Positions 1 through 12,467 of a stretch of DNA of 12,467 bases are shown one piece after another. Numbering within the stretch: the first letter of the stretch is position 1; each line of letters starts with the position of its first letter. A program made the translations under genes and the position numbers. The stretch covers positions 1 to 12,467 of the IMG/VR virus record IMGVR_UViG_2778261509_000004; one strand, given 5' to 3'. This DNA is from a virus (taxonomy: Duplodnaviria; Heunggongvirae; Uroviricota; Caudoviricetes). The notes beneath the pieces were generated by a model. The model had not been told where the DNA came from, made no database searches, and was given only the letters and a program-made list of their open reading frames with translations.

Positions 1-88
1 CGATTTTTTCCTGAGGTGTTTTACGTTTACGCACCTCTTTTCCTAACAAAACGCCAGCCATCTCAAAATTAGAACTAGTGTTAGACAT
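1..88 (-). CDS. hypothetical protein, 5' end only (gene runs off the left edge)
   Basis: Reverse complement of 1-88 begins ATG TCT AAC ACT and translates MSNTSSNFEMAGVLLGKEVRKRKTPQEKI with no stop before the window edge. No convincing Shine-Dalgarno. Absent from the ORF track because under 60 codons are visible. Confidence 0.3.
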   Translation of the reverse strand, partial: MSNTSSNFEMAGVLLGKEVRKRKTPQEKI

Positions 89-184
89 ATATCCAAGCCT
101 ATCTCTTATTTTAAGATACATCTACTGTCTGGTATTTCAGGGGGCCAGCTCACAAAGTCCTTTAAAGAACAGTTAAGTCGATAT

Positions 185-688
185 ATGAATGGTATGAATG
201 TATATCCATTCATTAGAATACCTTTTGATAGCATATCTTTCACTAAGGCTATGATTGGGCACGTGCTATCAGCAACTTCAGTTGAAGATTGTAAAAAAGA
301 ACCCGTAGATAGCCCCTTCTATACACCTTTAAAGGATTATGTTTTGGGTAAAAATTCAAGTTTTGAGGAAACTCATGATATTTACTACTGGTTTTACCCA
401 CACAGAATGCACATATCCGCTCAAAGTGTAGCATTTATGAACGAAGGACATGTGGCATTTATTTGTGCTTTACATTTTTTTCCTATCGGTTTTATTATCA
501 CAATGAAAAATGAAGGAACATACCCTGCCCACTCTACAAAATTAGAACTTGAAGATAAATTCCTTACATTTAATATGACCTCTATAAATTATGAGTATAC
601 GACATTTCCATTTGTAAATCTTAAGGGAAACCAAATGTATGCGATAAGCAACGGTCATACTTGTGTGAGTTATCCAATAATTAAGTGA
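185..688 (+). CDS. hypothetical protein (167 aa) in a low-GC block; function unknown
   Basis: A 504-nt ORF is unexpected by chance in AT-rich DNA, where stop codons are frequent. No recognisable motif in the translation and no strong RBS before the first ATG (alternatives at codons 4 and 23). Composition is clearly lower in GC than the rest of the window, by eye. Confidence 0.4.
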   Translation: MNGMNVYPFIRIPFDSISFTKAMIGHVLSATSVEDCKKEPVDSPFYTPLKDYVLGKNSSFEETHDIYYWFYPHRMHISAQSVAFMNEGHVAFICALHFFPIGFIITMKNEGTYPAHSTKLELEDKFLTFNMTSINYEYTTFPFVNLKGNQMYAISNGHTCVSYPIIK

Positions 689-741
689 CGGCTAAATCAT
701 ACAATCTACGCATGTTCACTTTCTACATATACCATCTATAA

Positions 742-767
742 TGTCCGCTGTTGGCACAAAGCGGACA
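742..767. other. inverted repeat TGTCCGCT-N10-AGCGGACA between convergent genes
   Basis: An 8-bp perfect stem (742-749 pairs with 760-767) around a 10-nt loop, between the 3' ends of the 185-688 ORF and the 835-1257 gene. No U-tract on either strand, so not a canonical intrinsic terminator. Confidence 0.3.
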
Positions 768-834
768 ACCACGCTAGCTCTACCCTGTGCCACAAAATGT
801 CAATTTGCATCTGAACTAATGCACTTTAATCTCG

Positions 835-1257
835 TCACTTCAATAAATACCGAACATCACCCTGATAAAACGACAATATGCGCTGCATAACTTCACTCTT
901 CCGGCACTCGCGACAGATTATGTTCTGACGCCTGTCGTAGCGACGTATTTCTCCGTCAGGTAATGACCAGATAAGGTCCGGATCAACCGCAGATGGTTTC
1001 TTCAGCTTTGCCCTTGAGAGCTTTTTACGGGCATTTTGCCAGTCCTTACGCGCCTGTTCAGACGGGAATAACCCGTAACCAGAGTTGTATACATCGCCGC
1101 TGGCAACCAGCTCTCTTGCGAGAACGCTCATCAGATATCTTGTCGCACCTGTCTTGACTTCCAGTTGCCGTAACGTCTCGCGTCCACTCCGGCGTACTAG
1201 CTCAACAACCTGCCCTTTAATTTTTTCCCGCTCTTCCTGTGTAAAAACTTTTGCCAT
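835..1257 (-). CDS. hypothetical prophage protein (140 aa from the ATG at 1257)
   Basis: ORF-track ORF 835-1272. I chose the internal ATG at 1257 because GGAGG lies 5 nt upstream on the coding strand; the track start at 1272 is a TTG that abuts the upstream stop. Tightly packed behind the replication genes on the same strand. No recognised motif. Confidence 0.65.
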   Translation of the reverse strand: MAKVFTQEEREKIKGQVVELVRRSGRETLRQLEVKTGATRYLMSVLARELVASGDVYNSGYGLFPSEQARKDWQNARKKLSRAKLKKPSAVDPDLIWSLPDGEIRRYDRRQNIICRECRKSEVMQRILSFYQGDVRYLLK

Positions 1258-1272
1258 AAGCGCCTCCGGCAA

Positions 1273-2034
1273 TCACTTTTCCGACACAATACGACTGGAG
1301 GAATCGACAATCTGTCGGACAATATCCCGGTGCTTGTTCAGCTCCCGCAGCGCGGCGCAGACTCGCTCCCACTTCTGGACATGATTTTTCGCCCGACGCA
1401 GTTCGCGGTTTGCCATATGCAGCGATGGTAAAACCAGGTCATCCGCTTGCGTTTCAGTAAACGATGGCAGCGACTGCACAATGTCCGCCACAGTTTCTGT
1501 TTTAATATCTTCCTGTGTTGCCGCTTCCTGTACTGGTAACGCAACACCGGCTGGCTGAGGAAAGGCTTTACCATCAGTTTCCGCTACCGATGCAGCTTTC
1601 GGCTCTGCTGGTAAATTATCGCCCGGCATGCAGTAACGAAATTTACCGTTCTGATTAACGCGAATCAGACGACCTTTACTGATTGCCATTGCCAGCGTTG
1701 AAGCCACTTTGCGTGATGTGATGCCGAAAAACGTAGCCAGTTCATCCGCCGTTTGTGGGCCACGTTGTTCAATCGTCGCAGTTAAATCGCACTCCGAAAT
1801 TTTTGCGACTGTTGCCGTGGTGGTTTCTTCCGGCAGTTCTGCCTGCTCTGGCTGTTCCTGCTGAACGTTGTTATCAGCCACGCGCCAGGTGTATACGCTT
1901 TTATCAACGAAGCCAGCCTTTTTCAGTTCCCACAGCTCGTTCAGCACTTCTTCACGACTGATATCAAGTCGCGCAGCCAGTTCTACCGACGTAGCTTTCC
2001 CCATTGCTTTCAGTGCGTCAAAAACAGTCTCCAT
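1273..2034 (-). CDS. hypothetical protein with two putative winged-helix-like segments joined by an acidic linker (253 aa from the ATG at 2034)
   Basis: ORF-track ORF 1273-2085. The ATG at 2034 ([13 protein letters not shown]) is preceded by GGGAGA about 10 nt upstream and leaves a 22-bp gap after the DnaC-like stop. Two segments look HTH-like: [32 protein letters not shown] and [35 protein letters not shown]. The fold assignment is inference from sequence pattern only. Confidence 0.65.
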
Positions 2035-2056
2035 TAAATTTTTCTCCCGGTAAAAA

Positions 2057-2803
2057 TTACTTCGCAATTCCTGGCTGGACGACATTCGGACGCCAGCTCT
2101 CCCAGTTAAAATTCACCCATCGCCCGCCGTTCATGGTCATGCGATCCATAATCCGCTCGCCGAGCAATGTTTTCATGGCCTCATAGTTCAGGTTTGTCAG
2201 CATTCCCACGCTACGCATCGACGCTGTCCGTCGATCAATAATCTGGTGCAGTACCACCTGCTCGTTTTTCGTCTCGCGCTGAATGCCAATTTCATCAAGA
2301 ACCAGCAGATCCACTTCGCACAGTTCCCGCAAAAATTTTTCGCCTGACTGCCCGTCGTCATAGCTGGCGTGGAGGGCACTCATAACATCAGCCACGGTAA
2401 CCACAATCACTGTCTGACCGTCTTTCAGCAGGCGATTCCCGATAGCTGCCGCTAAGTGATTCTTCCCGGTACCAGGTTTTCCGCTGAACGCAAAATTTGT
2501 ACACCCGGTCATCAGTTCATCAGCGATGGATTTCGCCTGACTCAACGCGTATCGCTGCCCTTCGTTCTGCACCTGGTAATTCGAAAACGAGCATTTGCGG
2601 TGCAATGGCTGGATGCCAGAGCGATTCAGAATTTTTTCCACCCGCAACTGACGATTCTGACGGTTGATCTCCTCACAACGTTTCTGGCCTTCGGAAAGTT
2701 GCCACTCGCGCCACTCCGCTACCGTCTTGAATGGCGCGGTTACATGTGACGGGGCCAGTCTGCGGATACGTTCAAGAACGTCGCCTGTCGCAATATTTTT
2801 CAT
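2057..2803 (-). CDS. DnaC-like AAA+ helicase loader (phage replication protein P functional analogue; YdaV-like)
   Basis: Walker [16 protein letters not shown] and Walker [10 protein letters not shown] in the translation, as in DnaC/IstB-family ATPases. GGGGG RBS 9-13 nt upstream. Start lies 6 bp after the stop of the upstream O-like gene, suggesting translational coupling. Confidence 0.9.
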
Positions 2804-2809
2804 GGTCAG

Positions 2810-3598
2810 TTACCCCCTGAAGCCTGGCGGGATCGCACTATCCGGTAACGAGACGGTGTTAACCTGTCGGAGTAACGTCTCAGGTCGAACACCTTTCGGC
2901 GCGAACAAGCCCTGGTATTCGTTGGCGATGCTGTGTCGAATCACCTGCTCAGGTGAAAAACCCTGCTGGCGGAATTTTTCCAGCTCCCGTATCGCCCCGT
3001 TAGCGCCCTGCTCCGTTCGAATCGGTTTTCGCAATGCCTGCCTGAACTGAACCCACTCATGCCAGAGTGTTTCCGGCAACCAGTCAGGCAGCTCGATAGC
3101 CTCCGGTTCGAATTTTTTAGACGCTCGTTTTTGGCGAGGGGGATTTAGGGGGAGATAAGTATTTATATCTTCCTCTTTCTCTTCCTCTGGTAACGCTTTT
3201 TGATCCGTTTTTGTAACGCTGGCAGCGTTACCTTTTCGTTTCAGTTCTCGTATTTTTGTTACTCTCTCGTTTGTAACCGCCCGTTTTTTAGAGCTTTTCC
3301 CGTTATGGCGCTCAAAGTTAGGAAGCGACAACACACCATTAGTTTCGACCAGCCATCCAACCTGAATTAACGCATCAGCAAAACCAGCCATAAAAGTGAT
3401 GCGATCTATTGCACTTTTTGTAACGCCGCGAGCGTTACACTCTGCGTTACCGTCTATCATTTGTTGATCCGCCCATGCCCAGAAGCGAATGACTTTCCCT
3501 AATGCGGCATCTGGATCAATATTCAGAATCTCAGCAAGCCTGAATATTTCCGGCTTATCCGGCGTAATAACTTCGAGCTTTATCCAGTTTGAAGCCAT
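2810..3598 (-). CDS. putative replication initiator / replisome organiser (lambda O-like position; YdaU-like)
   Basis: 262-codon ORF immediately upstream of the DnaC-like gene on the same strand. Two 19-bp palindromes lie inside the coding sequence and a third just upstream, like iterons within lambda O. Function is inferred from synteny and the repeats, not from a recognised catalytic motif. Confidence 0.6.
   Translation of the reverse strand: MASNWIKLEVITPDKPEIFRLAEILNIDPDAALGKVIRFWAWADQQMIDGNAECNARGVTKSAIDRITFMAGFADALIQVGWLVETNGVLSLPNFERHNGKSSKKRAVTNERVTKIRELKRKGNAASVTKTDQKALPEEEKEEDINTYLPLNPPRQKRASKKFEPEAIELPDWLPETLWHEWVQFRQALRKPIRTEQGANGAIRELEKFRQQGFSPEQVIRHSIANEYQGLFAPKGVRPETLLRQVNTVSLPDSAIPPGFRG
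3213..3231. repeat. 19-bp palindrome GTAACGCTGGCAGCGTTAC (copy 1 of 3), candidate origin iteron or operator
   Basis: Perfect dyad GTAACGC-N5-GCGTTAC read directly from the sequence. Extra half-sites nearby: GTAACGC at 3190-3196 and GTAACCGC at 3273-3280. Confidence 0.7.
3420..3438. repeat. 19-bp palindrome GTAACGCCGCGAGCGTTAC (copy 2 of 3)
   Basis: Perfect dyad, same arms as copy 1 with a different 5-bp centre. Followed by an extra half-site GCGTTAC at 3444-3450. Confidence 0.7.
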
Positions 3599-3611
3599 TT
3601 GTTTTCACCTT

Positions 3612-3630
3612 GTAACGCTCGCAGCGTTAC
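3612..3630. repeat. 19-bp palindrome GTAACGCTCGCAGCGTTAC (copy 3 of 3), about 14 bp upstream of the O-like start codon
   Basis: Perfect dyad with the same arms, positioned in the 5' leader of the O-like gene where an operator would sit. Confidence 0.7.
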
Positions 3631-3640
3631 ATTTAACTGA

Positions 3641-3662
3641 TACCGAACAAAACAGTTCGGTA
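3641..3662. other. inverted repeat TACCGAAC-N6-GTTCGGTA in the ydaT / O-like intergenic gap
   Basis: 8-bp perfect arms around a 6-nt spacer, located between the ydaT stop (3676) and the O-like start (3598). No U-tract follows on the transcribed (minus) strand, so a protein-binding site or RNA hairpin is more likely than a terminator. Confidence 0.35.
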
Positions 3663-3675
3663 CGATTAATTTCAA

Positions 3676-4098
3676 TCAATGCACTACGACAGAATCGCTA
3701 GGAGAACCGCCGCCGCTGAAATGCGCTTTCCGGTAAACGGCTTGGACTGCATCATCATGCGCATCAATTGCCGTACTTAACGCTTCCTGCGCCGCCAGTA
3801 ATGCACGGCGTTCCAGGGTATCGAAGATGCAGAGTCGGTGACGCAGCTCGCGCGGAAGGATTGCCAGAATTGCTGGGATCAGCTTCTGAATTTTTTCCCT
3901 TTGCGCATTCGTTTCACCTTTCAACCAACGGTGATAGATATTCTGCTGATTGTTCCAGTCCTTGCCTGGAACCAGGGGCAATTCGCCGCCCCCCTGGCGC
4001 AGATATTCTTCAGTAATTGCATTGGCTACCCATGCCTGCCCTTTTTCGGCTGCCAGGGCAAACAACACCGATTCGATGTGCTCATGCTTGATTTTCAT
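3676..4098 (-). CDS. ydaT: YdaT (Rac-prophage toxic protein, reported as a CII functional analogue)
   Basis: 140-codon ORF whose translation (MKIKHEHIESVLFALAAEKGQAWVANAITEEYLRQGGG...) matches my recollection of Rac YdaT in length and sequence. Lies directly downstream of ydaS on the same strand. Confidence 0.8.
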   Translation of the reverse strand: MKIKHEHIESVLFALAAEKGQAWVANAITEEYLRQGGGELPLVPGKDWNNQQNIYHRWLKGETNAQREKIQKLIPAILAILPRELRHRLCIFDTLERRALLAAQEALSTAIDAHDDAVQAVYRKAHFSGGGSPSDSVVVH

Positions 4099-4120
4099 GA
4101 ATCATTTGCCTCTTGATGTT

Positions 4121-4417
4121 TCAGGTATGATCAAATGAGGATTTGTTACTGTCATTTAGTTGCTTCACTGACATATTCTGCGAACAACATGCCGAACGTC
4201 GTAAATATGACCAGTCAATATCAGGACGAAGTTCTTCGCACAGCACCTCACCTCTTGTTGCACGTTCAATTGCTGGACATCTCTCGGCAGGCAATTGACG
4301 TACCCCTTTGATCCATTGATTTACGCTTGGAGGTGATACACCTAAAAGCCTAGCCATTGCTGTTTGCCCACCGACAACAGCACAAGCTTGCTTGAATGAA
4401 TAGTTCTCTTTTTTCAT
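4121..4417 (-). CDS. ydaS: YdaS, Cro-like HTH regulator (XRE family)
   Basis: 98-codon ORF with an HTH-like segment (FKQACAVVGGQTAMARLLGVSPPSVNQWIKG). GGAG lies 9-10 nt upstream of the ATG. Divergent from racR across an operator-rich 123-bp gap, the classic cro/cI arrangement. Confidence 0.8.
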   Translation of the reverse strand: MKKENYSFKQACAVVGGQTAMARLLGVSPPSVNQWIKGVRQLPAERCPAIERATRGEVLCEELRPDIDWSYLRRSACCSQNMSVKQLNDSNKSSFDHT

Positions 4418-4444
4418 CGAATGAACTCCAAAAACACACAGAGG

Positions 4445-4521
4445 TATTAGGCGACGCCTAATACAAATGTCAATAGGCTATGCCTAATACAATGAGAGTA
4501 GGGATTGCCTAATGCAATGAG
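4445..4521. promoter_or_regulatory. OR-like operator/promoter region between racR and ydaS
   Basis: Perfect 19-bp palindrome TATTAGGCGACGCCTAATA at 4445-4463. Palindrome TAGGC-TAT-GCCTA at 4474-4486. Three direct repeats of GCCTAAT(A/G)CAA at 25-bp spacing starting 4457, 4482 and 4507. On the minus strand there is a perfect -35 TTGACA (plus coordinates 4468-4473), with a weak -10 (TAATAC, 18-bp spacer) overlapping the big palindrome, a plausible ydaS promoter. On the plus strand a TACAAT -10 at 4488-4493 has no good -35, a plausible activator-dependent racR promoter. Confidence 0.6.
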
Positions 4522-4540
4522 CATAGGAGAATATTAAGCA

Positions 4541-5017
4541 ATGCTTAGTGGTAAAGACTTAGGCCGAGCGATAGAGCAGGCCATTAACAAAAAAATCGCA
4601 TCGGGATCCGTCAAATCAAAGGCGGAGGTCGCACGCCACTTCAAAGTCCAACCACCATCAATCTATGACTGGATTAAGAAAGGCTCCATAAGTAAAGATA
4701 AACTTCCAGAATTATGGCGTTTCTTTGCTGATGTTGTTGGTCCAGAGCATTGGGGGCTTAACGAATACCCCATACCAACCCCCACCAATCCAGATACAAA
4801 AAGTGAACTTTTAGATATAAACAACCTTTATCAAGCAGCCTCTGATGAAATAAGAGCGATTGTAGCTTTCCTGTTATCTGGAAATGCTACAGAACCAGAT
4901 TGGGTTGACCACGATGTTCGCGCCTACATAGCAGCGATGGAAATGAAAGTGGGTAAGTATCTGAAAGCTCTAGAATCTGAACGGAAAAGCCAGAACATCA
5001 CAAAAACTGGAACTTAA
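4541..5017 (+). CDS. racR: RacR, Rac prophage repressor
   Basis: 158-codon ORF whose translation (MLSGKDLGRAIEQAINKKIASGSVKSKAEVARHFKVQPPSIYDWIKKG...) matches my recollection of RacR. AGGAGA RBS upstream. Divergent from ydaS. Confidence 0.85.
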   Translation: MLSGKDLGRAIEQAINKKIASGSVKSKAEVARHFKVQPPSIYDWIKKGSISKDKLPELWRFFADVVGPEHWGLNEYPIPTPTNPDTKSELLDINNLYQAASDEIRAIVAFLLSGNATEPDWVDHDVRAYIAAMEMKVGKYLKALESERKSQNITKTGT

Positions 5018-5092
5018 ACTTATATGGTCTGACGGAAAACTCCTGGATTCCGTTATTTAACCCCCCCCATCACTTTCTCCAGTCGCCATCAC

Positions 5093-5157
5093 CTATTAGG
5101 TTACGCTTAAAACATTAGGCATAGCCTATTTACAATCAATTAGGCATTACCTATAGT
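5093..5157 (+). promoter_or_regulatory. OL/PL-like promoter-operator cluster driving the rightward early operon
   Basis: Near-consensus sigma70 promoter: -35 TTTACA (5129-5134), 17-bp spacer, -10 TATAGT (5152-5157). Operator-type motifs overlap it: TAGGC-ATA-GCCTA palindrome at 5116-5128, TTAGG half-sites at 5096, 5115 and 5140. The 15-mer TTAGGCATAGCCTAT (5115-5129) is the exact reverse complement of 4473-4487 in the racR/ydaS operator region. Confidence 0.6.
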
Positions 5158-5326
5158 TCCAGCATACCACCCACCCCGCCCCACAGAACGCCAGGCAATA
5201 CTTCGAGTTACCAGGCAGTGGTCAGGGGTTAAGTAGCCAGCCCGAGGCGTATGAACATGACGGCGGGATTCAAATTTTGCAGTGCAGCAGTTAGTTCCGC
5301 CACCCGGCGTTAAGGGGATAGATAAG

Positions 5327-5461
5327 ATGGTGCATTACGAAGTAGTTCAGTATTTGATGGATTGTTGCGGTATCACTTACAACCAGGCTGTGCAGGCTTT
5401 ACGCAGCAACGACTGGGATCTCTGGCAGGCAGAAGTCGCTATACGTAGCAACAAGATGTGA
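5327..5461 (+). CDS. ydaG: YdaG-like small protein (44 aa)
   Basis: ATG at 5327 preceded by GGGGA. Translation MVHYEVVQYLMDCCGITYNQAVQALRSNDWDLWQAEVAIRSNKM. Length and position (between racR and sieB) match Rac ydaG. Below the ORF-track size cutoff. Confidence 0.6.
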   Translation: MVHYEVVQYLMDCCGITYNQAVQALRSNDWDLWQAEVAIRSNKM

Positions 5462-5471
5462 GATTCGCAAA

Positions 5472-5627
5472 ATGCAAAAAATCGACCTCGGCAACAACGA
5501 ATCCCTGGTGTGCGGCGTGTTCCCCAACCAGGATGGAACGTTCACTGCCATGACGTATACCAAAAGCAAAACATTTAAAACCGAAACTGGTGCGCGCCGA
5601 TGGTTGGAGAAGCACACAGTAAGCTAA
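5472..5627 (+). CDS. ydaF: YdaF-like small protein (51 aa)
   Basis: ATG at 5472. Translation MQKIDLGNNESLVCGVFPNQDGTFTAMTYTKSKTFKTETGARRWLEKHTVS. Length and position match Rac ydaF. Its stop codon overlaps the sieB stop on the opposite strand. Confidence 0.55.
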   Translation: MQKIDLGNNESLVCGVFPNQDGTFTAMTYTKSKTFKTETGARRWLEKHTVS

Positions 5628-6112
5628 CGATTAAAACGTCTACTCCTGCTGTTCCAGAATAACTTCATAAAATGGGAGTATTTTTCGGTGACGAGATAAT
5701 AAGAACAGTTTGCGCTATCACTCTGATGTTGAATGATGCCCTTCCGTTCTAATTTTTTCATAACCGGGTTACGGCAAGGAGAAGTGATAATAAGATTTCC
5801 TGTTTTAAGGAAATCTTTAAATACAGCGATTTCTTTCTCAGATAAACGAAGCAATACTCGTTGCTCTGGTAGTAATGAATAATGCTTTTGAATATGTGCT
5901 CGCAATCTTGAGAAGGAAATGGCGACCACGAAAGAAAAGGCAAAAACGATAATCTGAAAGAGCCAAGGTATTTCAGTATAAGCATTGAATGCGACAGTAA
6001 ACTCTTTCGGTATCAGCCAGAGAGTGAGACCAAAAATGATAATCGTATACATAAGTCTTTCGAGTGGCTCGTTAGCAAAAAGTTTCAACAATGGAGTAAA
6101 TACATCCAACAT
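5624..6112 (-). CDS. sieB: SieB, superinfection exclusion protein (162 aa from the ATG at 6112)
   Basis: Translation from MLDVFTPLLKLFANEPLERLMYTIIIFGLTLWLI... matches my recollection of Rac SieB, with a hydrophobic N-terminal segment consistent with a membrane protein. The ORF-track version is extended to 6235; I prefer the 162-codon form. Confidence 0.75.
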   Translation of the reverse strand: MLDVFTPLLKLFANEPLERLMYTIIIFGLTLWLIPKEFTVAFNAYTEIPWLFQIIVFAFSFVVAISFSRLRAHIQKHYSLLPEQRVLLRLSEKEIAVFKDFLKTGNLIITSPCRNPVMKKLERKGIIQHQSDSANCSYYLVTEKYSHFMKLFWNSRSRRFNR

Positions 6113-6330
6113 ATCAATAACTCTCAACTGTAAGGGTATTGAAATGTTAACACAAGCTCTCGCTGTAGGGGTATAGCCGAGACCACCGAAGCCCGGAGGT
6201 GGTGAAATAAAACCGGGCACAACACGAAGGCGCATTTCCGATATCCATAAAGAGTCGGTCTTGTCTGTTAAATTTAAATGGTGGGAGTGCGCCTCCGGTT
6301 GTAAATAACGACATTGCTGTGTGTAGTCCT

Positions 6331-6372
6331 GGCGGCATCAGTTTTTTTCTTGAAGTTCGGCTGATGTCCGCC
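6331..6372. other. long imperfect inverted repeat GGCGGCATCAG-N19-CTGATG(T)CCGCC followed by CTTTTT
   Basis: 11-bp arms with a one-base bulge around a 19-nt loop, inside the ~440-bp non-coding gap between sieB and kilR. The loop is too long for a typical intrinsic terminator; could be a protein-binding dyad or structured RNA. Confidence 0.3.
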
Positions 6373-6553
6373 CTTTTTAAAGTGAGTTTTGTGATGCGGT
6401 GAATGCGGCTAAGCGCACGTGGCACAGTTAAAAGTCATGTTAGTCCTTATTGGTTTGGGTGGGAAAGCCGACTGTAATTGTTAACTGGTTGCAGTCACCT
6501 GGAGGCACCAGGCACCGCATCAACAAAGTTCATTTGTAAAAATGGAGATAATT

Positions 6554-6775
6554 ATGATTGCACATCACTTCGGAACTGATGAAATACCACGTCAGTGTGT
6601 GACTCCTGGCGATTATGTTCTTCATGAAGGCCGGACATATATTGCCTCGGCAAACAATATTAAAAAGCGAAAGCTTTATATTCGTAACCTGACCACAAAA
6701 ACATGCATTACTGACTGCATGATTAAAGTCTTCCTCGGTCGTGATGGTTTACCTGTAAAGGCGGAGTCATGGTGA
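6554..6775 (+). CDS. kilR: KilR, cell-division inhibitor of the Rac prophage (73 aa)
   Basis: ATG at 6554 preceded by GGAG (6544-6547). Translation [73 protein letters not shown] matches recalled KilR length and sequence. Confidence 0.8.
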
Positions 6776-6945
6776 TGACTAAGAAAATAAAATGTGCTTA
6801 CCACCTTTGCGATAAAGAAGTTAAAGAAAGCAAAAGCATTAAAAGACCACTTCATTTCATGCGTGGAGTTATCCCAACGACGGAAATGAAAAAATATTGT
6901 AGTGAAATATGTGCCGAAAAAGACCAGATGGCACACGAACTTTAA
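6775..6945 (+). CDS. ydaE: YdaE-like small Cys-rich protein (56 aa), putative zinc-binding
   Basis: ATG at 6775 overlaps the kilR TGA (ATGA coupling). Translation [56 protein letters not shown] contains a C-x4-C ... C-x3-C pattern. Below the ORF-track cutoff. Confidence 0.7.
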   Translation: MTKKIKCAYHLCDKEVKESKSIKRPLHFMRGVIPTTEMKKYCSEICAEKDQMAHEL

Positions 6946-7019
6946 TTAACTGACTATGCGAAACTGAATTTATGCCAGCAATGGCAGGGATTCGCTCAAC
7001 CTTAATTAAGGAGAAAAAC

Positions 7020-7295
7020 ATGATTACCAGTTATGAAGCCACTGTTGTAACTACTGATGACATTGTTCACGAAGTTAATCTGGAAGGAAAGCGTATTGGC
7101 TACGTGATTAAAACAGAAAATAAAGAAACCCCATTCACTGTAGTTGATATCGACGGTCCATCAGGCAACGTTAAAACACTTCACGAAGGTGTCAAAAAAA
7201 TGAGCCTGGTGCATATCGGAAAGAATCTGCCCGCAGAAAAAAAAGCCGGATTTCTGGCAACTCTGATTGCAATGAAATTAAAAGGTGAAATCTGA
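7020..7295 (+). CDS. racC: RacC (91 aa), function unknown
   Basis: ATG at 7020 preceded by AGGAG (7010-7014). Translation MITSYEATVVTTDDIVHEVNLEGKRIGYVIKTENKETPFTVVDIDGPSGNVKTLHEGVKKMSLVHIGKNLPAEKKAGFLATLIAMKLKGEI matches recalled RacC. The ORF-track start at 6972 is probably too far upstream. Confidence 0.8.
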   Translation: MITSYEATVVTTDDIVHEVNLEGKRIGYVIKTENKETPFTVVDIDGPSGNVKTLHEGVKKMSLVHIGKNLPAEKKAGFLATLIAMKLKGEI

Positions 7296-7300
7296 AAGAA

Positions 7301-7325
7301 ATAGCCTGCGTATGGCGCAGGCTAT
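7301..7325. other. perfect 10-bp stem-loop ATAGCCTGCG-TATGG-CGCAGGCTAT between racC and recE
   Basis: Read directly from the sequence. On the plus strand no U-tract follows it; on the minus strand it is followed by ATTTCTTTCA. Candidate attenuator or RNA-stability hairpin. Confidence 0.4.
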
Positions 7326-7396
7326 GAACAGTGTGTATCCGGCAAGATCATTCACTGAACAAAACGAATTTTAATCTGAGTTGAGGTTAAAAAACA

Positions 7397-10300
7397 ATGA
7401 GCACAAAACCACTCTTCCTGTTACGGAAAGCGAAAAAATCATCCGGTGAACCTGACGTCGTCCTGTGGGCAAGTGACGATTTTGAATCGACCTGTGCCAC
7501 TCTGGACTACCTGATCGTTAAGTCAGGTAAAAAACTGAGCAGCTATTTTAAAGCTGTTGCCACGAATTTTCCTGTCGTTAATGACCTGCCCGCTGAAGGT
7601 GAGATCGATTTTACCTGGAGTGAACGCTATCAACTCAGCAAAGACTCCATGACATGGGAACTAAAACCGGGAGCAGCACCAGACAACGCTCACTATCAAG
7701 GCAATACCAACGTCAACGGCGAAGACATGACTGAGATTGAGGAGAATATGCTACTCCCAATTTCTGGCCAGGAACTGCCCATTCGTTGGCTTGCTCAACA
7801 CGGCAGCGAAAAACCGGTAACGCACGTTTCACGCGACGGACTCCAGGCATTACACATTGCTCGGGCTGAAGAACTACCGGCTGTTACTGCCCTGGCTGTT
7901 TCCCACAAAACCAGCCTGCTCGCCCCGCTGGAAATTCGCGAACTCCACAAACTGGTTCGTGACACTGACAAAGTTTTCCCTAATCCTGGTAATTCAAACC
8001 TGGGACTGATAACTGCTTTTTTCGAAGCATACCTGAACGCTGACTACACCGATCGAGGACTGCTGACAAAAGAGTGGATGAAGGGTAATCGTGTTTCACA
8101 CATCACTCGCACGGCTTCCGGTGCTAATGCTGGCGGCGGAAACCTCACCGATCGCGGCGAAGGTTTCGTACACGATCTGACGTCACTGGCGCGCGACGTA
8201 GCCACTGGCGTACTGGCCCGTTCAATGGATCTGGACATCTATAACCTTCATCCGGCACACGCTAAACGCATTGAGGAAATTATCGCTGAAAATAAACCGC
8301 CCTTTTCTGTTTTCCGCGACAAATTCATCACCATGCCTGGCGGGCTGGATTATTCCCGCGCCATCGTGGTTGCGTCCGTAAAAGAAGCACCAATTGGGAT
8401 CGAGGTCACCCCCGCGCACGTCACTGAATATCTGAACAAAGTACTGACTGAAACCGATCATGCCAACCCTGATCCGGAAATCGTGGATATTGCCTGCGGT
8501 CGCTCCTCTGCCCCGATGCCGCAGCGAGTAACAGAAGAAGGAAAACAGGATGATGAAGAAAAACCGCAACCATCTGGAACAACGGCAGATGAACAGGGAG
8601 AGGCTGAAACAATGGAACCGGACGCAACTAAACATCATCAGGACACGCAGCCGCTGGATGCTCAGTCACCGGTAAATTCTGTTGATGCGAAATATCAGGA
8701 ACTGCGGGCAGAACTCCATGAAGCCCGGAAAAACATTCCATCAAAAAATCCTGTCGATGCCGATAAATTGCTTGCTGCATCACGTGGTGAATTTGTTGAC
8801 GGAATTAGCGACCCGAACGATCCGAAATGGGTTAAGGGGATCCAGACTCGCGATTCTGTGTACCAGAACCAGCCAGAAACGGAAAAAACCAGCCCGGATG
8901 TGAAACAACCTGAGCCAGTAGTGCAACAGGAACCGGAAATAGTCTGCAATGCCTGCGGTCAGACTGGCGGAGATAACTGCCCTGACTGTGGGGCGGTGAC
9001 GGGCGACGCAACATACCAGGAAACATTCGATGAAGAGAATCAGGTTGAAGCTAAGGAAAAAGATCCGGTGGAAATGGAAGGCGCTGAACATCCGCACAAT
9101 GAGAATGCTGGCAGCGATCCGCATCGTGATTGCAGTGATGAAACTGGTGAAGCGTCAGCTCCTGTAGCAACTGAAATCATGTGGCCGTCATATTTCGAGC
9201 CTGGCCGCTATGAAAACCTCCCGAACGAGGTTTATCACTCCGCCAACGGAATAAGCAGCACGATGCTGAAGGATGCCCGTATCAGCCTGATGTATTACCA
9301 CGGACGGCACATTGCCGGAACTATTCCGAACGAGGAAAGTGATGCACTGCTGCGTGGGCGGATCATTCACAGCTATGTTCTGGAAACGGATAAATTCGCT
9401 GATGAATATGCCATTCCGGTACCAGTTCCTGAATATGTGGTTACTACTTCTAGCGAACTGATCGCCATCATTAAAAAACACAATGCCAGTCTGCCAGCAC
9501 TGATGACACCAGAGCAGATGAAAGAGTGGATCGAAAGCTACAACAGCACTCTTATACAGCCACTGTCTGTAAGTGCTGGAGCCGAAGAAACAGGCATCCT
9601 TTACGGTTCGCTTCCGGTGGAATTCCGGCGTATTCCGGAGGAGGAGAAACATACTGCATCGGCAATGAAAGCCTGCATTAGAGAATACAATGCAAACCTC
9701 CCTCCTCTGTTGAAAACCAGTGGAACACGGGAGCAACTTCTGGAGCAAATTGAAACTGTAGATCCAGAACTGGCGAAAAAAGAACGTGCTAAATCTTTGC
9801 CTTACAACATCAGTGGCACGAAAGAGCAATTAACCGAAATCGCTCGGAAAATCCGCCCGGAACTGGTTACCCTGGAGGACTGGCAAAAACGCCAGCAAGA
9901 AGAAAACGCCGGGAAAACGTTTATCAGTTCAGATATGTATGAACAGGCAAAAAATATTCACGCTGCACTGCAAAACAATACTGATGCAGCAAGGCTACTC
10001 AACCACCCGGATCGCAAATCTGAAATCAGCTATTTCGGGTTTGATGAAGAAACCGGGCTGGAAATCAGGGTCCGTCCTGATATCGAAATCCGGCTGCCAT
10101 ACGAAAGCATTTGCGCCGACGTGAAGTCAGTCAGCCTCGGTTATGTGCGACAGGAACGACTGAAAGATCGCCTGCACCGTGAAATTATTGAGCGTGATTA
10201 TCACCTCAGCGCAGCAATGTATTGCGATGTGGCAAATCTGGACAAATTTTTCTGGATCTTCGTCAACAAAGATGCTGGCTATCACTGGGTGGCAGTCGTG

Positions 10301-10468
10301 GAAGCCTCGCAGGAACTCCTGGAACTTGGTCGACAGGAATATCGCCGGACGCTACGCCAGATAAACGAAGCCCTGGAGACAAACAACTGGCCAGCACCGA
10401 TTACCGAAAGTTATACCGACGAATTAAACGACTTTGATCTTCGTCGTCTTGAAGCACTGAGCATCTGA
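7397..10468 (+). CDS. recE: RecE-family exodeoxyribonuclease VIII (1023 aa) with a C-terminal PD-(D/E)xK-type nuclease domain
   Basis: N-terminus [24 protein letters not shown] matches recalled RecE. The C-terminal third carries YH...GIS and RPD...DVK motifs. It also has an acidic low-complexity linker and a C-x2-C-x7-C-x2-C knuckle ([16 protein letters not shown]). Longer than the 866 aa I recall for K-12 RecE. Confidence 0.85.
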
Positions 10469-10479
10469 GGAAGGACACA

Positions 10480-11532
10480 ATGAACGAATTAACTCAACAA
10501 GAAAATATTAACTCTAATGTTGCGGTTTTCAGCCCTCAGTCCCTGGCTGCAATTCAGACATTTTCCCAGGTAATGGCTTCCGGCATGGCTACTGTACCGG
10601 AACACCTCCGGGGAAATCCATCAGACTGCATGGCCATCACCATGCAGGCGATGCAGTGGCAAATGAACCCTTACGCAGTAGCTCAGAAAACTTTCGTTGT
10701 GAATGGTGTGCTCGGATATGAAGCGCAACTGGTTAATGCCGTAATCAGTACTCGTGGGCCGCTAACCGGGCGTATTGAATATGACTGGTTCGGGCCGTGG
10801 GAAAAAATTATCGGGAAATTTGAAATCAGGAAGAGCGACAAAGGGAAAGAATATCGTGTACCTGGCTGGAAGCTGGCCGATGAAAACGGGATCGGTGTTC
10901 GTGTCCAGGCAACACTACGCGGCGAAAGTAAACCACGCGTACTGGAATTACTTCTGGCGCAGGCCAGAACACGTAATTCAACGCTATGGGCCGACGATCC
11001 TCGCCAGCAGCTTGCCTATCTGGCGCTGAAACGCTGGGCGCGCCTTTATTGCCCCGAAGTGATTCTTGGAGTGTACACCAGGGACGAACTGGACGAGCCA
11101 CAGGAAAAAATCATTAATCCGGTTCAGGAACATAAAAACACTTCCGCTTGCCGCGCGGAACGTGAAACAACAATTATTGAGCAGGATGCCGGGGAAAACT
11201 GGATCGATGCTTTCCGTGAACGTATTGAGCAGGCACAAAGCACCGGGGAAACAACAGCACTTCGCCAGGAAGTGGAAGATCATAAAAATACACTTGGCGC
11301 TCTCTATACGGAACTTAAAGGAAAAGTGGTTCAGCGTCATCACCGTCTCAATGCTATTGCCCGTATCGAGAAGATGATAAATGACCTACCTTCTTCAGGT
11401 GATCCAGAAGCAGAACAAAAATTTACTGCTCTGGAAAATACGCTGAATGCTGCCCGGCCACATCTGGGTGAATTATATGAGGCGTATAAAACGACACTGA
11501 CAGATATGAAACCAGAATATATCGGCTCCTGA
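10480..11532 (+). CDS. putative single-strand annealing protein partnered with RecE (RecT/Red-beta-like; 350 aa)
   Basis: Starts 12 bp after the recE stop with a GAGGAAGGA RBS, the classic exonuclease-then-annealase order. A segment (AITMQAMQWQMNPYAVAQKTFVVNGVLGYEAQLVNAVIS) loosely resembles the conserved core of Red-beta/RecT. It does not match the 269-aa K-12 RecT I recall, so the family call is tentative. Confidence 0.55.
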   Translation: MNELTQQENINSNVAVFSPQSLAAIQTFSQVMASGMATVPEHLRGNPSDCMAITMQAMQWQMNPYAVAQKTFVVNGVLGYEAQLVNAVISTRGPLTGRIEYDWFGPWEKIIGKFEIRKSDKGKEYRVPGWKLADENGIGVRVQATLRGESKPRVLELLLAQARTRNSTLWADDPRQQLAYLALKRWARLYCPEVILGVYTRDELDEPQEKIINPVQEHKNTSACRAERETTIIEQDAGENWIDAFRERIEQAQSTGETTALRQEVEDHKNTLGALYTELKGKVVQRHHRLNAIARIEKMINDLPSSGDPEAEQKFTALENTLNAARPHLGELYEAYKTTLTDMKPEYIGS

Positions 11533-11542
11533 TATTTACTTT

Positions 11543-11580
11543 GGCGGTGTAGCCTCACCGCCATCACAAAATTTTATTTT
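11543..11580 (+). terminator. possible intrinsic terminator or attenuator after the annealing-protein gene
   Basis: GC-rich hairpin GGCGGTG-TAGCCT-CACCGCC (11543-11562) followed by ATCACAAAATTTTATTTT. The U-rich run is separated from the stem by several nt, so termination would be partial at best. Confidence 0.4.
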
Positions 11581-11595
11581 ATGAGAGAAAAGACA

Positions 11596-11790
11596 ATGCG
11601 GTATGAAAAAGTCAAACCATGCCCTTTTTGTGGTTGTCCATCAGTAACGGTGAAAGCCATTTCAGGATATTACCGCGCGAAGTGTAACGGATGCGAATCC
11701 CGAACCGGCTATGGTGGAAGTGAAAAAGAAGCACTCGAACGATGGAATAAACGAACCACTGGAAATAATAATGGAGGTGTTCATGTATAA
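11596..11790 (+). CDS. ralR: RalR/Lar restriction-alleviation protein (64 aa)
   Basis: Translation MRYEKVKPCPFCGCPSVTVKAISGYYRAKCNGCESRTGYGGSEKEALERWNKRTTGNNNGGVHV with C-x2-C ... C-x2-C matches recalled Lar. The ORF-track start at 11581 has no RBS; the ATG at 11596 has AGAGA upstream. Confidence 0.75.
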   Translation: MRYEKVKPCPFCGCPSVTVKAISGYYRAKCNGCESRTGYGGSEKEALERWNKRTTGNNNGGVHV

Positions 11791-11971
11791 AATTACCGCC
11801 ACTATTGAAAAGGAAGGTGGCACTCCTACTAACTGGACAAGGTACTCAAAAACAAAATTAACCAAATCAGAATGCGAAAAAATGCTCTCAGGTAAAAAAG
11901 AAGCAGGCATTTCCAGAGAGCAGAAAGTAAAACTGATAAATTTTAATTGCGAGAAACTTCAGTCGTCGTGA
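11783..11971 (+). CDS. ydaC: YdaC-like small protein (62 aa from the ATG at 11783)
   Basis: Strong GGAGG (11773-11777) 5 nt before the ATG at 11783, which overlaps the ralR stop. Position between ralR and xisR matches Rac ydaC. Exact start and identity are uncertain. Confidence 0.5.
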   Translation: MYKITATIEKEGGTPTNWTRYSKTKLTKSECEKMLSGKKEAGISREQKVKLINFNCEKLQSS

Positions 11972-12070
11972 ATTGCATTGTATTCAAATTAAAACTTCAT
12001 AGCTGATTATTAATAATCAACATCGGGCGTCAATTTCAGTCTAACATTGGCGCCTGCCAGAGGTGATGCG

Positions 12071-12286
12071 ATGGCACAAGTAATCTTTAATGAAGAGTGG
12101 ATGGTTGAATACGGCCTGATGCTTCGCACTGGTCTGGGGGCCAGACAAATTGAAGCATACCGCCAGAACTGTTGGGTGGAAGGCTTCCACTTCAAACGAG
12201 TATCTCCTTTAGGGAAACCAGACAGTAAGCGAGGGATTATCTGGTACAACTATCCAAAGATAAATCAGTTTATCAAAGACTCATGA
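12071..12286 (+). CDS. xisR: Rac-type excisionase-like protein XisR/YdaQ (71 aa)
   Basis: ATG at 12071 preceded by AGGTGA. Translation [71 protein letters not shown]. Lies immediately upstream of the integrase start, whose ATG (12288) follows the xisR stop by one base. Confidence 0.7.
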
Positions 12287-12287
12287 T

Positions 12288-12412
12288 ATGTCTAAATTAC
12301 CAACAGGTGTCGAGATTCGAGGTAAATACATTCGCATCTGGTTCATGTTTCGAGGAAAACGATGTCGGGAAACATTGAAAGGCTGGGAGGTTACTAACAG
12401 TAACATTAAAAA
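12288..12412 (+). pseudogene. intR: integrase 5' fragment (N-terminal arm-binding region), interrupted by IS1
   Basis: Translation from 12288 reads MSKLPTGVEIRGKYIRIWFMFRGKRCRETLKGWEVTNSNIKK, a typical Rac/P22-type integrase N-terminus. The reading frame then enters the IS1 end and stops at TGA 12431-12433. Confidence 0.75.
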
Positions 12413-12467
12413 GGTAATGACTCCAACTTACTGATAGTGTTTTATGTTCAGATAATGCCCGATGACC
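12413..12467 (-). mobile_element. IS1 terminal region (inverted repeat plus 3' end of insB), truncated by the window edge
   Basis: GGTAATGACTCCAACTTACTGATAGTGTTTTATGTTCAGATAATGCCCGATGAC matches the recalled IS1 end with about two mismatches. The rest of the element lies outside the window. Confidence 0.85.
12428..12466 (-). CDS. insB: IS1 InsB C-terminal fragment (last 12 codons plus stop)
   Basis: Reverse complement of 12428-12466 reads GTC ATC GGG CAT TAT CTG AAC ATA AAA CAC TAT CAG TAA = VIGHYLNIKHYQ*, as recalled for the insB 3' end. Confidence 0.55.
   Translation of the reverse strand, partial: VIGHYLNIKHYQ

Follow-up and report, generated by a model that had tools for sequence, protein, structure and literature searches.

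A predicted second RacR operator region over an early-left promoter of the Escherichia coli prophage Rac

Introduction

The repressor RacR encoded by Rac, a prophage of Escherichia coli, has so far been regarded chiefly as repressing the toxic ydaS-ydaT pair, and the question raised by the locus analysed here is whether it also acts at a second operator region, on the far side of its own gene, over the promoter of the other early operon. The locus lies in a 12,467-nucleotide stretch of DNA from a virus of the class Caudoviricetes (IMG/VR record IMGVR_UViG_2778261509_000004, positions 1 to 12,467), which is referred to below as the window and whose coordinates are used throughout. The window is the early part of a Rac prophage from E. 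coli and includes the immunity region; its orientation is reversed relative to E. coli K-12, to which it shows 98% identity across 4100-5500. The repressor gene racR (4541-5017, plus strand) encodes a protein of 158 amino acids, and ydaS (4121-4417, minus strand) is the first gene of the rightward-type early operon ydaS-ydaT-ydaU-ydaV. Genes were assigned from open reading frames and the annotation of close genomes (K-12 and LR-21-1), and the open reading frame at 4121-4417 is annotated as ydaS in these genomes.

The cluster of operators on the ydaS side of racR is already published and footprinted. Three GCCTAA/TTAGGC repeats were described in the racR-ydaS gap, and three RacR-DNA complexes were observed by electrophoretic mobility shift assay (Krishnamurthi et al. 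2017, PMC5700373). In K-12, the ydaS promoter was mapped by primer extension and mutagenesis of its -10 hexamer (-35 TTGACA, -10 TAATAT), three racR promoters were mapped, and DNase I footprinting with RacR yielded the consensus (T/A)TAGGC-n3-GCCTA(T/A), the ydaST promoter being the region protected at the lowest RacR concentration (Wisniewska et al. 2022, PMC9638921). YdaS was reported not to be a repressor of racR (PMC9638921). Both studies (PMC5700373, PMC9638921) were confined to the intergenic region and the racR start.

The RacR protein is an octamer by size-exclusion chromatography (PMC11014345) and has been said to be Gifsy-like and non-responsive to SOS (PMC10448788). When RacR is lowered, ydaG, ydaF, kilR, ydaE and racC go up 40-70 fold (PMC6765115, PMC11014345), and silencing of racR derepresses recE, recT, xisR and intR (bioRxiv 10.64898/2026.09.06.749655). 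No description of a Rac left operator, or of sites 3' of racR, was found in the literature searched, the scope of which left older subscription papers (e.g. Conter et al. 1996, on Rac kil) outside, and the downstream cluster in Rac appears to be undescribed. An initial annotation of the window, made from the sequence alone, had pointed to operator-like motifs on both sides of racR. We present evidence that the region at 5096-5157, beyond racR, is very probably the RacR-controlled early-left operator-promoter of Rac.

Operator sites on both sides of racR

The repeat unit on both sides of racR is a 15-bp palindrome, TTAGGC-N3-GCCTAA, which occurs at six sites in two clusters, starting at 4447, 4473 and 4498 between ydaS and racR and at 5096, 5115 and 5140 beyond racR. 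The pattern TTAGGCNNNGCCTAA, with up to two mismatches allowed, gave six matches in the 12.5-kb window, all of them inside the two clusters; in shuffled-sequence controls the mean was 0.34 and the maximum 2, and none of 200 shuffles reached six. The operator sites are non-random. They are spaced by 26 and 25 bp on the ydaS side and by 25 and 19 bp on the downstream side, and the two clusters are 642-693 bp apart, centre to centre.

The 123-bp racR/ydaS gap region contains four palindromes, including one more degenerate than the search pattern allowed. O1 (4447-4461, TTAGGCGACGCCTAA) is a perfect palindrome with no mismatches and lies over the spacer of the ydaS promoter and the first 3 nt of its -10 hexamer; the site's half-sites are invariant in 80 distinct E. 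coli-type sequences and the central triplet is variable. O2 (4473-4487, ATAGGCTATGCCTAA) overlaps the -35 hexamer of the same promoter by one base, O3 (4498-4512, GTAGGGATTGCCTAA) lies over the racR promoters, and O4 (4534-4548, TTAAGCAATGCTTAG), with three mismatches, is centred on the racR start codon. O1 to O4 correspond to the published sites and have the same consensus (PMC5700373, PMC9638921), O4 being the published operator that overlaps the racR ATG and a C-protein box (PMC9638921).

Beyond racR, OL3 (5096-5110, TTAGGTTACGCTTAA) is a weak or partial site 19 bp upstream of OL2 (5115-5129, TTAGGCATAGCCTAT), which is the reverse complement of O2, has invariant half-sites and overlaps the -35 hexamer of the downstream promoter by one base. 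OL1 (5140-5154, TTAGGCATTACCTAT) lies over the spacer of that promoter and the first 3 nt of its -10 hexamer. Read against the footprint-derived consensus, the downstream cluster belongs to the RacR operator family: OL2 departs from the ideal palindrome at one position, by a T that the published consensus permits, and OL1 at two positions, one of which is permitted, with OL3 departing at two positions of which neither is permitted. Conservation of OL3 is confined to its left half, where variability is 0.002, compared with 0.158 for the right half.

The sequence statements of the initial annotation hold, small corrections apart. The half-sites TTAGG at 5096, 5115 and 5140 are spaced by 19 and 25 bp as described, and the 15-mer at 5115-5129 is the exact reverse complement of 4473-4487; this match extends to 21 nt with one mismatch. 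The perfect palindrome in the racR/ydaS gap is present, but its length is 21 bp and not 19 bp in the window (arms 4444-4453 and 4455-4464, 100% complementary), because a substitution at 4444 that is private to the window (see below) adds a base pair to the 19-bp form kept by its relatives. The three GCCTAAT(A/G)CAA repeats do begin at 4456, 4482 and 4507, with spacings of 26 and 25 bp where a strict 25-bp period had been given. They are not direct repeats in the sense intended; they are adjacent palindromic operators that partly arose by a 25-26 bp tandem duplication, and an iteron-like reading was replaced by palindromic operators plus this lineage-specific duplication. The duplicated tracts at 4482-4501 and 4507-4526 are 85% identical, which marks O3 as an extra operator, the product of the 25-26 bp duplication in the E. 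coli lineage. E. coli Rac has four sites on this side (-94, -68, -43 and -7) where distant relatives have three (-67, -42 and -7), and in place of the degenerate O4 all distant relatives have a better site, TTAGGCAATGCTTAG, at -7.

One promoter cassette in two orientations

The ydaS promoter (PydaS, the counterpart of lambda PR) occupies 4444-4473 on the minus strand, with -35 TTGACA at 4473-4468, the -10 hexamer at 4449-4444 and a spacing of 18 nt. The near-consensus promoter TTTACA-17-TATAGT noticed in the initial annotation is found at 5129-5157 on the plus strand, where it matches 10 of 12 consensus positions, and is the predicted early-left promoter (the counterpart of PL). In the direction of transcription, the ydaS promoter reads TTAGGCATAGCCTAT-TGACA-N6-TTAGGCGTCGCCTAA-TAC on the minus strand and the downstream promoter TTAGGCATAGCCTAT-TTACA-N5-TTAGGCATTACCTAT-AGT on the plus strand. 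Both early promoters are a single cassette in opposite orientations, in which a site ending in T is followed by TGACA, N5/6, a second site and TAT. In each, one operator covers the spacer and runs three bases into the -10 hexamer, and the last base of the other operator is a base of the -35 hexamer. The 25-26 bp operator spacing is due to this promoter geometry, and the shared 15-mer exists because the -35-proximal operator is common to both promoters; the 21-nt inverted repeat spans the operator and the -35 hexamer of both, and its single mismatch is a private substitution of the window at 5131.

The downstream promoter points away from racR into ydaG-ydaF-kilR-ydaE-racC-recE-recT-ralR-xis-int. 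racR (plus strand) is divergent from the cro-like ydaS (minus strand), with sites in the gap over the promoters of both, and at the sequence level a second cluster of sites lies beyond racR over a predicted promoter for the other early operon. The first gene 3' of the predicted promoter is ydaG (5327-5461, plus strand; annotated in K-12 and LR-21-1), followed by ydaF (5472-5627, plus strand), which matches DUF1391.

Between the promoter and ydaG lies a conserved untranslated leader (5164-5326, plus strand) with a C-rich 5' end, which is common to prophages of at least four unrelated repressor types. More than 2,000 E. coli genomes contain the 160 nt 3' of the -10 hexamer at 80-99% identity, and so do phages with PaaR2-type, DicA-type and Tritos CI repressors and an Actinobacillus phage. 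The sequence 5' of about 5163 is specific to the repressor type, and prophages with other repressors share the leader without the operators. This mosaic junction at about 5163 therefore suggests that an immunity-specific promoter is placed directly upstream, as would be expected if 5096-5157 is an immunity-specific operator-promoter with a start near 5164.

As to the leader itself, no Rfam match was found for it, either in a search of the whole window or in one of 5100-5400 under permissive settings. Across 112 distinct rows, RNAalifold supported only one or two compensatory pairs (5195:5211 and 5174:5228) among many broken pairs. One might guess that it serves as a Rho loading site or in the translational control of ydaG.

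Two further candidates were rejected. The leader is not a conserved small open reading frame; it holds only frames of 20-24 amino acids, and indels of 1, 3 and 4 columns break the reading frame. Nor is there an intrinsic terminator in the downstream cluster, where no plus-strand site was called and the hairpins are weak and lack a U-run. Directly after racR, at 5030-5055 on the plus strand, a hairpin (-11 kcal/mol, z-score -1.8) is followed by UAUUU, and might conceivably act as a weak terminator of racR transcription that separates racR from the left promoter. The sequence after the racR stop (5030-5067) continues from this hairpin with UAUUUAA and a run of eight C.

Conservation across racR-like loci

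A protein-similarity scan of one genome per species was used to find racR-like genes, and only the loci found in this way are an unbiased sample. They include genes from Mixta, Morganella, Klebsiella and Proteus with 56-62% identity and from Pigmentiphaga and Achromobacter with 74-75% identity over the first 77 residues only. The initial annotation had made its interpretation depend on conservation of the motifs in prophages that share racR, and five of the six distant loci have the upstream sites at -67, -42 and -7 together with a downstream pair exactly 25 bp apart. The downstream cassette of these loci, TTAGGCnnnGCCTAT-TGACA-n5-TTAGGCnnnGCCTAA-TAT, lies 64 bp to 1.9 kb past the racR-like gene. 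OL2 is conserved in the Mixta, Morganella, Proteus, Pigmentiphaga and Achromobacter loci and in IMG/VR phages, and OL3 is absent in the distant relatives.

In a wider set, the downstream pair was present in 177 of 180 evaluable loci (52 distinct versions), a count tempered by the fact that part of this set was collected with the cassette itself as the query. Among the 80 distinct E. coli-type sequences, variability was 0.021 in the half-sites and 0.138 at the other positions of the two regions, namely the central triplets, inter-site spacers and flanks (Mann-Whitney p = 3e-9, a value that overstates independence because the sequences are related). The promoter hexamers in the same sequences are invariant save for single variants at three positions, two of which are the window's own. 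Taken together, the downstream cassette travels with racR-like genes from Enterobacterales to Burkholderiales, with its half-sites constrained and its spacers drifting.

In loci where other genes separate the downstream pair from the repressor gene, the pair has travelled with the early-left genes. In locus L140, from a group of racR-like phages, an HSDR_N nuclease-like gene separates the repressor gene from the pair, and rdgC follows the promoter. This intervening gene (L140 1820-2989, 389 amino acids) has a type I restriction HSDR_N-like nuclease domain, takes the position of lambda rexAB and might serve in defence, with expression from the lysogen; a similar intervening gene is probably present in the Klebsiella locus, L009.

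RacR control of the early-left operon and alternative explanations

In the most likely explanation, RacR dimers bind the 15-bp palindromes of both clusters. O1 and O2 cover the -10/spacer and the -35 edge of the ydaS promoter, O3 and O4 cover racR's own promoters, and OL1 and OL2, about 640-690 bp away past racR, sit in the same register on the second, predicted sigma-70 promoter. Binding and repression by RacR on the ydaS side, and derepression of both operons on lowering of RacR, were shown in published work. Occupancy by RacR would exclude RNA polymerase and keep both early operons off, and a drop in RacR would let both early operons fire. From the identical half-sites and the derepression of the left operon, we infer that RacR binds at the downstream cluster. 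Transcription of the left operon presumably begins at the predicted promoter, near 5164. Since RacR is an octamer, long-range bridging or looping is plausible, and as a tentative addition to this scheme RacR octamers may bridge the two clusters.

Several points weigh against this interpretation, besides the two cautions attached to the conservation figures above. RacR occupancy and a transcript start at 5096-5157 are predictions from sequence; the fragment used in the RacR-footprint studies ran only from -186 to +85 relative to the racR start (PMC9638921). The derepression of the left operon after loss of RacR could be partly indirect, via YdaS/YdaT or through read-through from racR. OL1 and OL3 carry two mismatches each, and the right half of OL3 is not conserved. 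Finally, the Klebsiella locus L009 lacks the downstream pair within the 2.5 kb examined.

The octameric state of RacR in solution (PMC11014345) would also suit a downstream cluster that is a helper site without a promoter, looping to the ydaS-side operators to strengthen repression or autoregulation, with the left operon served by read-through or by another promoter; a Rho-dependent terminator reported to limit read-through from racR towards kil has likewise been counted in favour of this possibility. We consider it improbable, as the sites stand in a fixed register on near-consensus hexamers that are as conserved as the half-sites in all lineages, and the equivalent promoter of prophage CP-933P is active and repressible (PMC8630535).

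It is similarly very unlikely that the downstream sites are used by the Cro-like YdaS and not by RacR. The helix-turn-helix segments of the two proteins are related, and in CP-933P the left promoter PL933P is repressed by YdaS (PMC8630535), but the half-sites match those protected by RacR in the published footprint (PMC9638921), and in lambda-type switches two proteins share their operators, so that use by YdaS would add to RacR control of the early-left promoter.

The near identity of the two promoter-operator cassettes, as inverted copies, could in principle mean that the downstream motifs have no function and are left over from a past duplication of that region around the ydaS promoter. A relic would be expected to decay, yet half-sites and hexamers are constant while spacers drift, and the arrangement persists from Enterobacterales to Burkholderiales at a variable distance from the repressor gene; there is little chance that this explanation is correct. 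That the palindromes are RNA hairpins terminating racR or antisense sieB transcription is hardly credible. A terminator-like minus-strand site was flagged by a scan at 5128-5116, but the stems comprise just 4-5 pairs (-5 and -2.4 kcal/mol) and the plus strand lacks a T-run. What is conserved in the half-sites is base identity, as for protein recognition, and no compensatory changes were seen.

RacR and YdaS proteins

RacR of the window matches the NCBIfam RacR equivalog with 242 bits. A Pfam scan of the protein gave no domain above the cut-off, Peptidase_S24 included, with HTH_17 as the only sub-threshold hit, and a profile search against solved structures returned no credible relative. RacR of the window thus lacks the C-terminal Peptidase_S24 domain that characterises cI/LexA-type repressors, in agreement with the initial annotation, which had stated that RacR is not a lambda cI homologue. 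That statement does not extend to the N-terminal domain. Repressors of 300-366 amino acids from Burkholderiales and IMG/VR phages have a RacR-type N-terminal domain (71-75% identical) joined to a Peptidase_S24 C-terminal domain (40-56 bits) with a GDSMEP motif, and use the same TTAGGC-N3-GCCTAA operators and promoter cassettes (loci L011, at 2501-3406, L012, L138, L163, L167, L169 and L186). On these comparisons, RacR is best seen as a cI-type DNA-binding module with an exchanged C-terminal domain.

YdaS matches Pfam YdaS_toxin with 107.6 bits and P22_Cro with 36.7 bits (cut-off 30.2). Its helix-turn-helix is 41% identical to that of RacR over 29 amino acids, including PPS(I/V)..WIK. Operators shared between RacR and YdaS have been suggested in the literature, and use of the same operators by YdaS, which would fit the shared helix-turn-helix, is presumed here.

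Comparison with known prophage switches

The initial annotation likened the locus to the OL/OR arrangement of lambda, and this comparison is borne out insofar as one family of repressor sites flanks racR over two outward early promoters, is conserved, and is accompanied by derepression of the left operon on loss of RacR. As in lambda with cI and Cro, the repressor gene has on either side a multi-site operator region over an outward early promoter, and a cro-like gene is divergent from the repressor gene. The lytic promoters carry the strongest sites and the repressor's own promoter carries weaker ones, and the repressor is able to form octamers. The spacing, which had been called unlike that of lambda, is in fact another likeness. 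From the annotated operator starts of lambda (OR 37951, 37974 and 37998; OL 35591, 35615 and 35635), the spacings are 23 and 24 bp in OR and 24 and 20 bp in OL, compared with 26 and 25 bp and 25 and 19 bp in Rac; adjacent sites are thus 20-24 bp apart in lambda and 19-26 bp apart in Rac, and in both the step to the third left site is the shorter one.

Rac differs from lambda in that its operators are 15 bp long (6-3-6) and of another sequence, with four sites in the right operator. The distance between OR and OL is about 0.65 kb in Rac and 2.3 kb in lambda, and in E. coli Rac there are no rexAB-like genes between them. In E. coli RacR, a helical C-terminal domain takes the place of the self-cleaving S24 domain, and the protein is reportedly unresponsive to SOS (PMC10448788), and YdaS, unlike Cro, reportedly does not repress racR (PMC9638921).

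The switch of the sister prophage CP-933P (PaaR2/YdaS/YdaT; PMC8630535) resembles that of Rac in gene order, in its YdaS- and YdaT-type neighbours, in its three OL sites, in an octameric repressor, in the identity of the -35 and -10 hexamers between PL and PR, and in the conserved leader and DUF1391 gene that follow PL. Its PL933P, with OL1-3, lies 3' of the repressor operon and was found in reporter tests to be repressed by PaaR2 and YdaS (PMC8630535). The repressor of CP-933P is unrelated to RacR, its operators are GTTTAGTAA-type repeats, and its repressor gene is separated from PL by a toxin-antitoxin pair; PL and OL have been tested experimentally there, whereas those of Rac are predicted from sequence.

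Repressors of the Gifsy type, for which antirepressors and not SOS cleavage bring about induction, provide a third comparison. To our knowledge, no antirepressor is known for RacR, which distinguishes it from this type. The likeness lies in the absence of S24 from E. coli RacR and in the description of RacR as similar (PMC10448788).

A two-operator arrangement is unsurprising for a lambdoid prophage, and the ydaS-side half was already published. If the second operator region is real, RacR would be a direct gatekeeper not only of ydaS-ydaT but also of kilR, recET, ralR and xis-int. The RacR octamer, for which the published idea is four dimers lined up on the four repeats of one gap, could alternatively be two pairs of dimers bridging the two regions. 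In the comparative data, one operator-promoter cassette and one DNA-binding domain are retained from Enterobacterales to Burkholderiales across an exchange of the C-terminal domain, a domain swap that is a clean example of a phage repressor altering its induction signal with its targets unchanged.

Two substitutions private to the window

Positions 152-12412 of the window are colinear with E. coli LR-21-1, the closest complete genome, and over 12,261 bp exactly two substitutions separate them. An A-to-G change at 4444, the last and most conserved base of the PydaS -10 hexamer, converts TAATAT to TAATAC, where all 181 other loci have TAATAT. A G-to-T change at 5131, the third base and conserved G of the -35 hexamer of the predicted left promoter, converts TTGACA to TTTACA, where all other loci examined have TTGACA. 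Of the 182 racR loci examined, only that of the window has either allele, and both are absent from IMG/VR and JGI metagenome contigs. The best matches among 5,426 complete E. coli genomes searched were imperfect, and the best of all, in a base-by-base alignment, carried neither. The probability that two random substitutions both fall in the 24 hexamer positions of the two promoters is about 4e-6. Both substitutions are expected to lower sigma-70 promoter activity.

The end of an IS1 element (12413-12467) interrupts the integrase gene 125 nt into intR, and the Rac copy of the window is therefore probably unable to excise. Because both substitutions are in promoter hexamers and the integrase gene is interrupted, the window might represent a Rac prophage undergoing permanent silencing by selection, although we put this forward with some doubt. 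Rac toxicity is usually escaped by excision; were this blocked, promoter-down mutations in the two early operons would offer the next way for a drop in RacR to be tolerated. If such silencing has indeed occurred, the pair of mutations would be natural genetic evidence for 5129-5157 as a working promoter. Sequencing error or another origin of the two substitutions is possible.

Gene content and other features of the window

The second gene of the ydaS operon, ydaT, is at 3676-4098 on the minus strand. Beyond ydaF, sieB is on the minus strand and is followed on the plus strand by kilR, ydaE and racC, by recE (7397-10468), by recT, ralR and xisR, and by the start of intR at the right-hand end of the window. 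At the other end, positions 1-155 are the end of an IS3-family element that cuts a prophage gene. The only Rfam family match in the whole window was the RalA small RNA at 11789-11967. In the ydaU-like gene, the length of a T-run at 3283 differs by one base between the window and LR-21-1 on the one hand and the IMG/VR relative L015 and strain RM10740 on the other; this gene is annotated with 262 amino acids in the window and 285 in K-12. The recE product has 1023 amino acids in the window and 866 in the K-12 annotation.

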